From a virus (lineage: Duplodnaviria > Caudoviricetes): 64,000 bases of DNA. Below are positions 8,181-12,288 of this stretch, in pieces (positions within the stretch are counted from its first letter, which is position 1; every line of letters begins with the position of its first letter). A program made the translations under genes and the position numbers. Under the pieces are notes generated by a model. That model saw nothing but the letters and a program-made list of their open reading frames with translations. It did no database searches and was not told the DNA's origin. Location: positions 7,788 to 71,787 of the IMG/VR virus record IMGVR_UViG_3300033072_000033; one strand, written 5' to 3'.

Positions 8181-10019
8181 TTGGCTAATACAAACTTTTT
8201 TATCGTCAAAAACGGGATTGCTGTAGGCAACACCGGTTCGACCAGAGGTATTGTTGATAATACCGGCAAGTGGATTGGGGACCCAACTGGACTCATTGGT
8301 GCCACTGGCCCAACTGGACCAACAGGTGCTACCGGTCCAACAGGCGCAACCGGACCAACCGGACCGACAGGCGCTACTGGACCTACAGGGCCTACTGGTT
8401 CAACTGGACTGACTGGCGCTACAGGACCTACAGGTGCCACTGGCCCAACTGGACCAACAGGACCGACAGGCGCTACAGGTGTAACTGGTCCCACTGGACC
8501 TACAGGTGCTACCGGATTAACTGGAGCTACTGGTCCAACAGGCCCAACTGGACCCACAGGTGCCACCGGATTAACTGGAGCTACTGGTCCAACAGGACCA
8601 ACAGGCCCAACTGGACCCACAGGTGCTACAGGCGTACAGGGTAATAATGCTGGGATGCGGTATAACTTTAGTACAACCATAACAGACGTTGATCCAGGTA
8701 CTGGTATATTTCAATTCAACAATGCCACTGCCGCTAGCGTTTCATTTATATACATTGATCTATTAAACCAAAGCTCTGTCGATATGACTGCTTGGATTGA
8801 CTCTTGGGATGATAGCACAAATGCTGTTAAGGGTCACATTGTTATTGATTCTAATATAACGAGTGATGGCACCAAAATCATATTCCAATTGAATAGTATC
8901 ACAACAGCAACTGGATATCGCAAACTTGGTGTGTCATACATATCCGGCACAATACCATCAAATACCGAAGCGTGTGTTATACAATTCTATCGTGCGGGGA
9001 ATCTCGGTGCCACAGGACCCACAGGGTTAACTGGTGCTACTGGTGTAACTGGCCCAACAGGGCCCACTGGACCTACAGGTGCTACCGGACTAACTGGGGC
9101 TACTGGTCCAACTGGGCCGACGGGTGCTACTGGTCCAACTGGACCTACAGGGCCTACTGGTTCAACTGGTGTAACTGGTGCCACTGGATTAACTGGGGCT
9201 ACAGGACCAACTGGACCCACAGGTGCTACTGGTGCCACTGGATTAACTGGGGCTACAGGACCAACTGGACCCACAGGTGCTACTGGTGCCACTGGTGTAC
9301 AGGGGCAAACCTCTGGCTTGCGGTATAATTTCAGCACAGTCACGACGGATGCAGACCCCGGAATTGGTGTGTTTCGGTTTAATAGTGCCACAGCCGCTAG
9401 TGTCACATTCATTTATATTGATCTGTTGAATCAAAGTTCGGTAGATTTTACAACATGGATCGACTCTTGGGATGATAGCACAAATGCTGTTAAGGGTCAT
9501 ATTGTTATCGATTCTAATAATATATCCGATGCCACAAAGATTGTTTTCCAATTAAACAGCATTACAGCAGCAACTGGTTATCGTAAACTCGCAGTCACGT
9601 ACCAATCTGGAACAATCCCGTCAGATGCAGAGCCATGCACGATACAATTTTATCGCGCTGGTAATCTTGGTGCTGCTGGTCCAACTGGACCTACGGGACC
9701 AACTGGACCCACAGGAGCAACGGGTTTAACTGGTGCCACCGGTCCAACAGGACCGACTGGATTGACTGGTGCAACAGGACCTACCGGACCAACGGGTTTA
9801 ACTGGTGCCACCGGACCAACAGGACCACAGGGACCACAAACAGTATCCTCCGGCGTTATCACATTATCATCAACCACACCATTCATGGTGCATTCTAATA
9901 CCGTTAGTGCGAATTACACGTTCCCAGCGGGATATAACTGTGTACACGCTGGACCCATGACTATCAACAATGGCGTAGTGGTTACTGTCGCCACCGGATC
10001 TACATGGGTGATCGTATAA
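8181..10019 (+). CDS. Collagen-like (Gly-X-Thr) fibre protein with duplicated globular domain
   Basis: Three uninterrupted G-X-T tracts (about 39, 35 and 20 triplets by hand count); two copies of a [17 protein letters not shown] domain; C-terminal [22 protein letters not shown]; TTG start after GGGA. Confidence 0.9.
9174..9295 (+). repeat. Exact 54 nt tandem duplication inside the collagen tract
   Basis: Unit actggtgccactgg...cacaggtgct starts at 9174 and 9228, partial third copy at 9282. Confidence 0.85.
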
Positions 10020-10044
10020 GTAAGATATACTAAAGGAGTTTATT

Positions 10045-10617
10045 ATGCGCGGTGAGTGGTGTTATTATAAAAATGCGTTTAGTCCTGAATTTTGCAACTC
10101 AATACTCGAAAATGGGTTAAAGCTGCCAGTTCAGGACGCAACGCTAGGTGTTAACGGTGAAAGTAAACGTGAAGATTATCGCCGGAGTAAGATTCGATTC
10201 ATCCAAAGAGATAATCCAGATTTCCAGCCATTATTTGATGCAATGTGGAAAATGGCAACAGAAGCTAATGATACTTGGTTTGATTTCCATCTATCGCGAA
10301 TTACATATATCCAACTTGCCGAATATGATGAATCCTATCAAGGTGAATATAAAGACCATCACGACGTATTCTGGATGAATGGCGACCCGAAATATCACAG
10401 AAAACTTACTGCGGTGGTCCAGTTATCAGATCCGAACACATATGAAGGTGGTAATTTGGAGTTAAGTAATCCAGCACAAACACCAAATCCAGATGATGTT
10501 CGGGCGCGAGGCACAACATTCTTTTTTCCATCATTCCTAAATCACCGCGCAACACCTGTAACCAAGGGTGTTCGATATAGTCTGGCATGCTGGTTTGAAG
10601 GCCCAAAATGGCGATGA
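10045..10617 (+). CDS. 2OG-Fe(II) oxygenase, prolyl-hydroxylase/PKHD-like
   Basis: H-x-D (HHD), RKLT, YEGGNL, distal H ([14 protein letters not shown]) with the 2OG-binding Arg. Confidence 0.85.
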
Positions 10618-11741
10618 GACTACACGTTTTAGGCGTCCCCCATACAGTAAGCTCTAAAGATTTTGTAGCTTGTGCGTTTACTCAAAAAGTTGTTAAGTTC
10701 TGCGACATGATGAAACGCAGGGGCCATACAGTAATTCATTATGGGCATGAAGATTCCCAAGTTAATTGTGATGAGCATGTTACAGTGATCACTAATGAAG
10801 ACTGGACAATCGCATACGGTGATTATAATTGGCGGCAAAACTTCTTCAAATATGACATCAATGATCACGCATATCAAACTTTCTATAAAAATGCAATAAA
10901 AGAAATACAAAAAAGAAAACAACCAAACGACTTTTTATTGCCGTTCTGGGGTAGTCCTATGAAACCAATATGCGATGCTCATAGTGACGTGATTGTTGTT
11001 GAGCCTGGTATTGGTTATGCTGGCGGTCATTTTGCGCGATTTAAAGTATTTGAGTCATATGCAATCTATCACGCATATTGTGGATTGGATTCTGTTGGTA
11101 CATGTAAACAGGATTGGTATGAATGTGTGATACCTAATTATTTTGATCCAGATGATTTCCTATATTCAAAAGATAAAGACGACTTTTTTCTATTTTTGGG
11201 TAGAGTCTATGACGGCAAGGGAATCCAGATCGCAATTCAGGTAACAGAAGCAATTGGTGCGAAATTGGTTATCGCTGGTCAGAATGATGGTAATTTAGTA
11301 TTCCCAAATCATGTTGAGTTTGTCGGTTATGCTGATACAGAAAAGCGTAAACAATTGATGTCAAGAGCTAAAGGGGCTTTCGTTGCAAGTCTGTATAATG
11401 AGCCGTTTGGTGGAGTTCAAATAGAATGCTTATTGTCTGGAACCCCCACGATTACGACAGATTGGGGCGCATTTACAGAAAATAATTTACATGGGATAAC
11501 TGGATATCGATGTAGAACTTTTGAGCAGTTTTGTTGGGCTGCAAAGAATATAGAAAAGATAGATCCTGAAGTATGCCGGTCTTGGGCAATAAATAATTTT
11601 TCATTAGATCGAGTCGCAGAGATGTATGAAGAATATTTCACATCCGTATTAAATATATACGGGAAGAATGGTTGGTATGAACGTAACGATGAACGGCTTA
11701 ATTTGGATTGGCTGAAAAAGGATTATAATGCAAAATTTTAA
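10608..11741 (+). CDS. GT-B (GT4-like) glycosyltransferase
   Basis: [10 protein letters not shown] and [18 protein letters not shown] (E-x7-E) motifs. Confidence 0.85.
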
Positions 11742-12288
11742 ATATGAAATTGATTTTTGGGGTGACTGTACTAACACATTTGGGGAGGATCTGAAGCATT
11801 ACACATATGCGGCGCTAATGGGTATGCAACATGATGGTATGTGGGGGTTTGATGTTGGTAATAAACGAATCCTAGATATTGGTGGTGGTCCATCATCTAT
11901 GTTACTTCAATGCAGGAATTTAAAAGAGGGTAAAGTTTGCGACCCGATAGATTACCCAAATTGGACGAAGGATCGATATAAGACAAAAAATATCGATGTT
12001 CAAGTTATTGGTGGTGAATTAATTAATGAATCTGGTTGGGATGAGGTTTGGATATATAACTGTCTGCAACATGTAGAAGATCCACAAAAAATTATTGAAA
12101 ATGCTAAATCCGCCGCCAAAACTTTGCGGATATTTGAATGGATCAATATCCCAGTGCACGATGGACATCCACACATGCTAACGAAAGAAAGTCTTGAAGC
12201 ATGGATAGGTCAAACTGGCAACACAAATTATATAAATGAGAATGGTTGTATAGGTGAATGTTTTTATGGTGTTTTCAAAATAGCATAA
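11728..12288 (+). CDS. Class I SAM-dependent methyltransferase
   Basis: RILDIGGGP motif I; [16 protein letters not shown]. Confidence 0.75.

Follow-up and report, generated by a model that had tools for sequence, protein, structure and literature searches.

The 64,000-nucleotide stretch of phage DNA analysed here (the window) carries, on the + strand, a collagen-like fibre gene (8181-10019) and, 3' of it, genes for a P4H-fold 2OG oxygenase, a GT4-type glycosyltransferase (GT) and a class-I SAM methyltransferase (MT). The fibre ORF begins with a TTG start codon, with AGGGA 9 nt 5' of it, and encodes 612 residues, for which the best PHROG matches are tail-fibre families. After an N-terminal stretch of 36 residues, the protein alternates collagen and knob domains (collagen-knob-collagen-knob-collagen) and ends in a C-terminal module. 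The three collagen blocks (8289-8648, residues 37-156; 8997-9311, residues 273-377; 9660-9839, residues 494-553) comprise 40, 35 and 20 unbroken Gly-X-Y triplets, respectively, and Pfam Collagen (PF01391) matches the protein with an E-value of 4.8e-41 and 138.8 bits against a cut-off of 27.2. Threonine occupies 86 of the 95 Y positions (Gln 4, Leu 2, and Ile, Asn and Ala 1 each), the X positions hold Pro 44, Ala 29, Leu 11, Val 5, Asn 3, Ser 2 and Gln 1, and no Asp, Glu, Lys or Arg occurs in any of the 95 triplets. The first-pass annotation of this DNA had described an uncharged Gly-X-Y fibre of about 95 triplets with a Thr-rich Y position, which corresponds exactly to this ORF. Antisense ORFs within the gene (e.g., 8123-8680, - strand) were discarded as shadows of the repeats.

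The collagen blocks are separated by two near-duplicate copies of a 116-residue non-collagen domain (8649-8996, residues 157-272; 9312-9659, residues 378-493). This knob domain has no match in Pfam or the PDB, and an Atlas search returned unnamed viral clusters only; it belongs to a virus-only uncharacterised family. The 59-residue C-terminal module (9840-10016), recognised by alignment from its ending AGPxxINxGxxVTVxxxSxWxIV, is common to a 1286-residue fibre encoded upstream of the window and to collagen proteins of related phages. The non-collagen domains flanking the repeats could nucleate putative trimers.

A gap of 25 nt separates the fibre gene from the oxygenase gene (10045-10617), which overlaps the GT gene (10608-11741) by 10 nt; the GT gene in turn overlaps the MT gene (11728-12288) by 14 nt. 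The late-promoter-like sequence CATAAATA (12284-12291, + strand, with ATAAATA at 12285-12291) overlaps the MT stop codon and lies 25 nt 5' of the start of the gp13 neck protein gene (12316-13269, + strand; phrog_211), a conserved gene that closes the variable fibre region and is given for context rather than as part of the cassette. The enzyme trio is thus placed ahead of the gp13 late promoter, as had been noted at first pass. ATAAATA occurs 13 times in the window, 12 times on the + strand and mostly directly 5' of structural genes. Upstream of the collagen gene, the closest copy (4347-4353, + strand) precedes the gene of a 1253-residue fibre by 40 nt, and no further copy is found between 4353 and 11589, where the motif falls inside the GT gene. 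We found no + strand terminator in the run of collagen and enzyme genes. The overlapping stop and start codons, together with the absence of a terminator and of a late-promoter motif between 4353 and the GT start, point to co-expression of the enzymes with the fibre genes. The segment preceding gp13 in T4-like marine phages is known as a hypervariable store of fibre and "LPS-like" genes (PMC7029224), so that adjacency within this region counts as weaker evidence. A megablast search of the locus against cultured phages gave no match.

The 190-residue oxygenase matches PF13640 (2OG-FeII_Oxy_3) with an E-value of 6e-15 and possesses the iron triad H105-x-D107...H167 as well as R177, the basic residue binding the C5 carboxylate of 2OG. 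Among 21 relatives down to 29% identity, H105 is invariant, D107 and H167 are retained in at least 90%, and R177 is nearly invariant. Its structural model (pLDDT 91.3) retrieved 4iw3, 6t8m, PHD2, 5c5t (vCPH of PBCV-1) and 3gze as the top Foldseek matches, with TM-scores of 0.70-0.77 and E-values of 1e-10 to 1e-9. Nearly all of the top 50 structural neighbours are protein prolyl 4-hydroxylases, the rest being PKHD hydroxylases of the PiuC type. Judged from the model, the oxygenase is a DSBH-fold enzyme nearest to protein prolyl hydroxylases.

The GT, a 377-residue enzyme of the GT-B/GT4 type, matches PF00534 (Glycos_transf_1) with an E-value of 1e-13 and 51.2 bits (cut-off 26.4) and belongs to phrog_3408 (E-value 4e-183). 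The EX7E motif (E265-x7-E273) is retained by all 16 relatives compared, the most distant of them 29% identical, and among PDB entries the GT best matches 7fg9, a UDP-Glc alpha-1,2-glucosyltransferase (E-value 1.6e-18). The N-terminal domain is family-specific, and a sequence search with this half of the protein found no match among solved structures. A putative acceptor, protein threonine, is suggested by the gene neighbourhood.

The MT comprises 186 residues and scores 23.1 bits against PF13489, below the cut-off of 27. It has no NCBIfam match, and all 1056 relatives are named "hypothetical", so we filed it as a member of an uncharacterised MTase-fold family (phrog_3603). Motif I (L49-D-I-G-G-G-P55), D72 and an HxGHPH stretch at residues 144-149 are invariant. 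The model (pLDDT 91.8) shows a class-I SAM-MTase fold, and Foldseek aligned it to at least 500 SAM methyltransferases with a probability of 1.0 and TM-scores of 0.52-0.65, sugar O-methyltransferases among them. The MT tracks the GT and not the collagen: a GT is present, mostly directly adjoining, in 59 of 78 loci centred on the MT, and 43 of these 59 have no collagen gene within 8 kb. Some of the collagen-free GT-MT pairs lie beside MazG, dCMP deaminase and TerS genes, others in glycan-synthesis or sulfotransferase clusters. The SAM methyltransferase proposed at first pass as a partner of the collagen hence stands as to its fold and its tie to the GT, but not as to a constant association with collagen. 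Close relatives of the GT are fused to methyltransferases of two other types (PF13489/PF08241 and FkbM, PF05050); we rejected these fused domains as homologues of the window MT, since the BLASTP similarity is confined to the level of motif I.

In the co-occurrence survey, members of the GT family repeatedly lay directly beside Thr-rich collagen-like genes, both in phages and on bacterial chromosomes. Of 41 dereplicated viral lineages with the GT, about 15 have a collagen gene adjoining it, in varied gene orders and in different phage types, including the cultured phages S-CAM7 and ACG-2014f. Cellular genomes yielded relatives of the GT, at 44-71% identity, in 284 places; 45 of the best 80 of these 284 loci contain a collagen-like ORF. 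Within the same best 80 loci, 41 of 46 collagen ORFs lie at most 500 nt from the GT, 40 of these 41 are on the same strand, and the outer flanks (538 kb) hold only 2 collagen-like ORFs. The bacterial contexts are ordinary chromosome, e.g., in Clostridia, Chitinophaga and Hyphomicrobium.

We also compared enzyme content with fibre composition in 27 dereplicated collagen-bearing lineages; one GT-bearing lineage (L201) had been entered as GT-negative by a miscall, and one at a contig edge (L024) was not judged. Among these phylogenetically non-independent lineages, the fraction of Thr at Y is 0.36-0.91 with a GT versus 0.02-0.16 in five of the six with the oxygenase only (Mann-Whitney p about 0.002), and Pro per triplet is 0.13-0.92 with an oxygenase versus 0-0.26 without (p about 0.0003). 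Fibres accompanied by the GT only are Pro-poor, whereas those adjoining an oxygenase are Pro-rich, with Pro mainly at X in other lineages as in the window. Three loci with a PLOD-like Lys-hydroxylase/glycosyltransferase (S-CAM9, S-PRM1 and L144) are exactly the top three for Lys at Y among 204 collagen ORFs. For the window itself, we rejected a lysyl-hydroxylase and Hyl-glycosylation (LH3/PLOD-L230) reading, as the fibre lacks Lys and the window contains no PLOD-like ORF. Thr-rich Y positions are the viral default, and both the GT and the oxygenase are absent from the available flank in 110 of 120 sampled Gly-Pro-Thr collagen loci, which implies that such fibres do not generally need these enzymes. 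The 43 collagen-free GT-MT pairs contradict the idea of the trio as a fixed unit confined to collagen loci. A phage pathway modifying its own collagen, as outlined in the first-pass annotation, retains the GT association and the P4H and SAM-MTase folds in its favour.

Having compared the locus with hundreds of others from phages and bacteria, we consider it likely, though unproven, that the enzymes chemically decorate the fibre, and we favour, on balance, a late-expressed cassette of fibre maturation composed of the collagen fibre, GT, MT and oxygenase. The 612-residue protein would form a trimeric virion fibre with three Gly-X-Thr stalks, two knobs and the C-terminal module common to the other fibres of the phage. 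Glycosylation of the fibre is the step that we predict with the most confidence, and the comparative data support it well: the GT would most likely O-glycosylate Y-position threonines with a host UDP-hexose as donor, probably in alpha linkage because it is a GT4 enzyme of the EX7E type. Methylation of the sugar by the MT, most likely as O-methylation, has roughly even odds. The modifications made by the cassette would be expected to render a triple helix with neither Y-position Pro nor charge pairs more stable or more soluble, or to shield it, and the glycans may additionally offer a surface for host contact.

Hydroxylation of the fibre, probably at the X-position prolines of Gly-Pro-Thr, we consider equally likely to be right or wrong. 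The oxygenase target is the weakest link of the cassette because the canonical C-P4H substrate (X-Pro-Gly, with Pro at Y) does not occur in the fibre, where all 44 triplet prolines are at X. 4-Hyp at X of Gly-Hyp-Thr also stabilises the helix; a literature search on Hyp at that position found no report. There is some chance, well short of an even one, that the GT acts on the fibre alone or with the MT, and that the oxygenase, as one of the many 2OG oxygenases of cyanophage type, hydroxylates another target. This could be a translation factor, in the way that bacterial P4H modifies EF-Tu, or some other protein of the phage or its host. The best structural neighbour of the oxygenase is the EF-Tu prolyl hydroxylase of P. 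putida, close orthologues lie before gp13 with no collagen nearby (L158/159, L163 and L151), and several 2OG oxygenases cluster in one region of S-CAM9. Furthermore, none of five bacterial genomes searched that bear the collagen-GT pair contains a close oxygenase. However, many lineages carry the oxygenase directly 3' of collagen genes, with or without a GT (L070, where the genes overlap, L127, L148, L161, L165-169 and L174-179), an orthologue of 49% identity in the cyanophages S-CAM9 and S-PRM1 is flanked by a collagen-bearing fibre gene on one side and the PLOD-like collagen enzyme on the other, and the contrast between Pro-rich oxygenase-adjoining and Pro-poor GT-only fibres also argues for the fibre as substrate. 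Of the prolyl-hydroxylase-like enzyme proposed at first pass, the P4H fold, the intact active site and the company of Pro-containing collagens hold, whereas the fibre lacks the Y-position Pro of the usual substrate.

Marine-myophage GTs in host-recognition clusters are usually read differently (PMC7029224; PMC12801897): the three enzymes could remodel host surface glycans, such as the LPS O-chain, to block superinfection or alter adsorption, their adjacency to the fibre reflecting nothing but the hypervariable region. The GT, with or without the MT, indeed shares islands with epimerase-like genes and further GT-like genes (L008, L009, L011 and L022) and beside sulfotransferase, APS-kinase and GT2 genes (L163). 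We regard this explanation as improbable, given that the same GT family adjoins collagen-like genes in phage-free bacterial chromosomal contexts, that fibre composition co-varies with enzyme content, and that the genes belong to a late rather than an early unit. Hypermodification of phage DNA by the GT and MT, yielding a glycosylated and methylated base, is very improbable. In its favour, GT-B enzymes that resemble 7fg9 have been put forward as DNA glycosyltransferases of Rhizobium phage RL38J1 (PMC13326640), and the largest non-collagen lineage has the GT-MT pair beside a MazG-like pyrophosphatase and a dCMP deaminase. Against it, we found neither a thymidylate-synthase-like base hydroxylase nor a hydroxymethylase in the 72-kb record (about 40% of the genome); moreover, the genes form part of a late structural operon, the GT family adjoins collagen genes in bacteria, and the oxygenase fold is that of P4H and not of TET/JBP.

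The fibre-maturation cassette bears on the stability of collagens without hydroxyproline or charge pairs, which has been described as an open question for Thr-rich Gly-X-Thr repeats, the type of collagen that viruses and prokaryotes have most often (PMC11923368). As a near-obligate partner of collagen-like genes, in bacteria as in phages, the GT family supplies clonable candidates for this question, and the companion methyltransferases and P4H-like oxygenases are further concrete ones. More tentatively, and with the odds somewhat against it, marine phages may possess a modular collagen-maturation toolkit, whose GT would be shared with many bacteria, in which the enzyme class matches the fibre composition: the GT4-like enzyme and MT with Thr at Y, the P4H-like oxygenase with Pro at X, and the PLOD-like enzyme with Lys at Y. 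In that case, the window would hold the first bacteriophage pathway to a hydroxylated, O-methyl-glycosylated Gly-Hyp-Thr(sugar) collagen. If true, such a toolkit would explain how Hyp-free and charge-free Gly-X-Thr collagens of prokaryotes and viruses fold, and the many "LPS-like" GTs and "cryptic" P4H genes of marine phages would become enzymes of virion maturation instead of host-metabolism genes (PMC7029224; PMC9301287). The enzymes may also serve for the production of modified recombinant collagens, and the cultured carriers S-CAM7, ACG-2014f and S-CAM9 make the proposal directly testable.

In agreement with the first-pass annotation, literature searches found no characterised bacteriophage example of such a pathway. 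The closest cultured carriers are the Synechococcus phages S-CAM7 (gp014-018) and ACG-2014f (gp015-019) of the Kyanoviridae, in which collagen-repeat genes likewise precede a GT of the same family (67-70% identity), together with the MT in ACG-2014f (57%). Their 2OG oxygenase is more distant (about 33% identity to that of the window), the gene order is collagen, MT, GT, oxygenase instead of collagen, oxygenase, GT, MT, and their collagens are less pure, with Thr at Y of 0.41-0.45 and charged residues present. These genes are annotated merely as hypothetical protein, glycosyltransferase or PiuC, and we found no functional study of them in the literature. Mycobacteriophages also decorate their own virion proteins with phage-encoded GTs (Freeman et al., 2023, cited in PMC12619734); as summarised there, these GTs come from other families, modify the C-termini of capsid and tail-tube subunits instead of collagen repeats, and have no described hydroxylase or methyltransferase partner.

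Among eukaryotic viruses, Mimivirus L230, a lysyl hydroxylase/glucosyltransferase, and the P4H of PBCV-1 (5c5t), one of the closest structural neighbours of the window oxygenase, similarly act on viral collagen-like or Pro-rich proteins. The chemistry of L230, however, requires Y-position Lys. The Gly-X-Thr helix of Riftia cuticle collagen, as recounted in PMC11923368 (citing Bann et al., 2000; Mann et al., 1996), depends on Thr glycosylation, and (Gly-Pro-Thr)10 stays unfolded unless its Thr is galactosylated; the same work reports TGP and TGA triplets as over-represented in viruses. Riftia collagen belongs to an animal extracellular matrix and carries beta-galactose, and its modifying enzymes are unrelated or unknown. 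O-methylated sugars are present in the glycans of BclA. In C. difficile, the gene of SgtA lies beside bclA3, and the enzyme transfers GlcNAc onto Thr of the collagen repeats (PMC7157674). The window shares with SgtA-BclA3 and the Bacillus exosporium protein BclA the arrangement of a GT gene beside the gene of a Thr-rich collagen-like surface fibre. SgtA combines a GT-A/GT2 catalytic domain with TPR repeats and forms a beta-GlcNAc linkage, whereas the window GT is of the GT-B/GT4 EX7E type and has no TPR repeats, so that the two are analogues and not homologues, and the window system would be SgtA-like in its working without being a member of that family. The SgtA-BclA3 systems are cellular and have no hydroxylase, in contrast to the viral window with its hydroxylase-like gene. 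On these comparisons, the system appears to be a variant of systems already known to modify collagen, here in an uncultured marine T4-like phage.

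The collagen fibre gene and its three enzyme genes belong to an uncultured T4-like phage, whose 71.8-kb source record (64 kb of it in the window) covers some 40% of the genome. The phage's major capsid protein reaches at most 64.6% identity with those of Synechococcus myoviruses. The collagen-enzyme stretch closes the variable fibre region, and the neck genes gp13, gp14 and gp15 come directly after it. Second in the cassette, downstream of the collagen gene (8181-10019, + strand), is the oxygenase gene (10045-10617; 190 aa; PF13640), followed by the genes of a GT4-type glycosyltransferase (GT; 10608-11741; 377 aa; PF00534, phrog_3408) and a SAM methyltransferase-fold protein (MT; 11728-12288; 186 aa; phrog_3603, scoring under the Pfam threshold for Methyltransf_23). 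The three enzyme genes overlap by 10 and 14 nt. The first-pass annotation had described a collagen with these three enzymes, and the ORF, the triplet counts, the overlaps and the families were borne out in every detail. The T4 gene just 5' of gp13 is wac, encoding the trimeric neck whisker fibritin; the collagen gene holds the same place relative to gp13 (12316), and its product might serve as a whisker or collar fibre and not as a tail fibre. A GIY-YIG/NUMOD3 homing-endonuclease gene (13187-13894) is inserted between gp13 and gp14, overlapping the gp13 3' end by 83 nt, and TATAAATA directly precedes the gp14 start.

The fibre consists of 612 residues, and its three collagen blocks add up to exactly 95 Gly-X-Y triplets. 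Of these, 86 have Thr at Y, while the X position is mostly Pro (44), Ala (29), Leu (11) or Val (5), and none of the triplets contains a charged residue. The usual stabilisers of bacterial collagens, Y-position Pro and charge pairs, are both absent. Two near-identical 116-aa domains without a Pfam or PDB match separate the collagen blocks. A 59-aa module (9840-10016) with the pattern …AGPxxINxGxxVTV…SxWxIV closes the protein. The same module closes an unrelated fibre of this phage (1286 aa, encoded upstream of the window, L191:6729-6905) as well as collagen proteins of other, related phages, and may be a common device for attachment or trimerisation. Related phages carry in the same region a second, Gly-rich (19-44% Gly) fibre-like class (L158:1313-4545, L157:1-441 and L003:3658-5286), which has a terminal …G(L/I)V(V/I)V(Y/W)xY(K/S) motif and is not a strict Gly-X-Y collagen.

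The best-supported account of the locus is a late fibre-maturation cassette with a proposed chemistry. The GT would attach a hexose-type sugar to Thr at Y, the MT would methylate this sugar, and the oxygenase would hydroxylate the X-position prolines. This proposal fits known collagen biophysics. Gly-4Hyp-Thr forms a helix. (Gly-Pro-Thr)10 stays a random coil until its Thr carries galactose (PMC11923368, citing Bann et al. 2000).

As for the enzymes, the oxygenase residues H105-x-D107, H167 and R177 are kept in relatives down to 29% identity. The structural neighbours of its predicted model (pLDDT 91) are almost all protein prolyl 4-hydroxylases, including the Pseudomonas putida P4H with EF-Tu, Dictyostelium and human PHDs, the PBCV-1 viral collagen P4H and an algal P4H, with a few PiuC-type PKHD hydroxylases. 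The GT4 EX7E motif, E265-E273 in the window GT, does not vary within the GT family. For the C-terminal half of the GT the nearest matches are retaining enzymes that use UDP-glucose (glucosylsucrose synthase 7fg9 and tetrahydrobiopterin glucosyltransferase), and no solved structure matched its N-terminal acceptor half. The MT shows motif I LDIGGGP, D72 and an invariant HxGHPH, with a predicted class-I SAM methyltransferase fold (pLDDT 92) whose neighbours include the sugar O-methyltransferases RebM, AtmM and EvdMO1 among many small-molecule methyltransferases; none of its 1056 relatives is a named protein.

ATAAATA, the late-promoter core of T4 and cyanophages, is depleted in the window (13 sites versus about 22 expected). 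All but one of the 13 sites lie on the + strand, mostly just 5' of structural genes (among others at 4347, 12285, 13891, 18357, 22457, 26994, 30846 and 48708), a placement consistent with late promoters. The site at 4347 lies 40 nt ahead of the upstream 1253-aa fibre gene and that at 12285 lies 25 nt ahead of gp13. Between 4353 and 12285 we found a single site, at 11589 within the GT gene and none before the collagen, oxygenase or GT starts, and no convincing + strand terminator; the upstream fibre, collagen, oxygenase, GT and MT are therefore probably expressed together, late. Such timing suits the modification of a virion protein better than early modification of host or DNA.

Co-occurrence was tested as the first-pass annotation had proposed. 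Among 25 viral GT-centred loci, a collagen gene adjoins the GT in 13, the oxygenase in five and the MT in five, in variable gene order; cultured S-CAM7 and ACG-2014f have collagen genes, then MT, GT and a more distant oxygenase. In the reverse test, covering 120 viral loci (1 Mb in total) that match a 13-residue Gly-Pro-Thr-type protein pattern, we found the GT in six, the oxygenase in five and the MT in none, so most such collagens come without these enzymes. Where GT or oxygenase do occur there, most lie directly 3' of the collagen gene. Oxygenase orthologues of at least 49% identity (45 oxygenase-centred loci) lie almost always just 5' of gp13 and mostly 3' of collagen genes, with the GT present or absent; those at L158/159 and L163 have no collagen gene nearby. 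At L163:2774-5789 (also L151 and L157), in a related T4-like lineage, sulfotransferase, APS-kinase-like and GT2-like genes precede an oxygenase-(MT)-GT-gp13 block and replace the collagen gene, which hints at further fibre or glycan decoration, e.g., sulfation.

The MT accompanies the GT, not collagen. Of 78 MT-centred loci, 59 contain the GT, mostly directly adjacent, and only 16 a collagen gene, so that the trio's independence of collagen, named at the outset as evidence against the idea, holds in part, for the GT-MT pair. Many GT relatives (72-77% identical; P0245-P0352, e.g. at L005, L010, L127 and L218) form C-terminal fusions with another kind of class-I MT domain (~555 aa) or with an MT of the FkbM type (~588 aa), neither of which proved homologous to the window MT. 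Because three unrelated MTs are recurrently joined to one GT family, methylation appears to belong to the GT pathway, and the simplest reading of the MT is that it would methylate the GT-transferred sugar. The largest lineage without collagen has the pair flanked by a small terminase gene (Sf6-type) on one side and genes for a MazG-like pyrophosphatase and dCMP deaminase on the other (L243:6144-9719, L231, L259, L268); its 16 near-identical IMG/VR loci, from an uncultured phage that is not T4-like, have no collagen gene within 8 kb of the pair. Other collagen-free sites are sugar-enzyme islands or lie beside sulfotransferase and APS-kinase genes. In such contexts the pair could possibly remodel host glycans or glycosylate DNA (PMC13326640), both poorer explanations of the window locus than fibre maturation.

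In T4-like marine phages this fibre region is hypervariable (PMC7029224), which could by itself account for such adjacency. The GT family also occurs at 284 places in cellular genomes (44-71% identity), and 45 of the best 80 of these loci contain a collagen-like ORF. No more than 500 nt separates the GT from 41 of the 46 bacterial collagen ORFs, and 40 of these 41 share its strand; the 538 kb of outer flank contain only two. The hosts include Clostridia, Chitinophaga, Planctomycetota, Hyphomicrobium and Bradyrhizobium, and four inspected neighbourhoods are ordinary chromosome without prophage. This pairing removes the objection that adjacency in T4-like phages merely reflects a hypervariable region and, together with the composition match described below, outweighs the collagen-free occurrences of GT-MT.

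We compared fibre composition with enzyme class across viral lineages that have collagen genes, 27 after dereplication, all of them sampled by way of the enzymes. Thr at Y reaches 0.36-0.91 beside the GT versus 0.02-0.16 in five of six oxygenase-only lineages, which have Gln, Ala or Pro at Y. For Pro per triplet the range is 0.13-0.92 with the oxygenase alongside (at least 0.27 for close orthologues) versus 0-0.26 in GT-only lineages. The Mann-Whitney p values (~0.002 for Thr at Y, ~0.0003 for Pro per triplet) are indicative only, the lineages not being phylogenetically independent. L201 and L024 were miscalled, both against the pattern, which their correction would therefore strengthen. The match extends to a third, PLOD-like enzyme class. 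Two cultured cyanophages, S-CAM9 and S-PRM1, encode an 1830-aa tail fibre with a 59-triplet collagen run (Lys 22 and Thr 24 at Y), then two P4H-like oxygenases, one 49% identical to the window oxygenase, and next a GT25 + PLOD-GT + oxygenase-like protein with the architecture of LH3 and Mimivirus L230. All fetched loci together yield 204 collagen ORFs, and the three with the most Lys at Y come from precisely the three loci that encode PLOD-like enzymes (L270:540-9396 in S-CAM9, NC_031922 27398-36254; L271 in S-PRM1; L144:1206-4842). The window has neither Lys in its fibre nor a PLOD-like GT25/PLOD-GT enzyme.

The hydroxylase step is the weakest of the proposal, because canonical collagen P4H requires Pro at Y, the best structural match of the oxygenase hydroxylates EF-Tu, some orthologues lack a nearby collagen gene, and bacteria with the collagen-GT pair lacked the oxygenase in the five genomes checked. 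The role of viral P4H has been termed "cryptic" (PMC9301287). Here the enzyme-composition match offers the first comparative evidence on what the hydroxylase may act on.

Virus-encoded collagen modification has been published for Mimivirus and PBCV-1, and virion glycosylation for mycobacteriophages; no report of bacteriophage collagen modification was found in the literature searched. Three elements are new here: an MT family that stands alone, the quantified pairing of GT and collagen genes in bacterial chromosomes, and the three-way match of enzyme class with fibre composition. The closest characterised analogue is Clostridioides difficile SgtA, a GT encoded, as in the window, beside a collagen-like gene (bclA3), which adds GlcNAc onto repeat threonines (PMC7157674). 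Because SgtA belongs to the GT-A type, its likeness to the window GT is functional, not familial.
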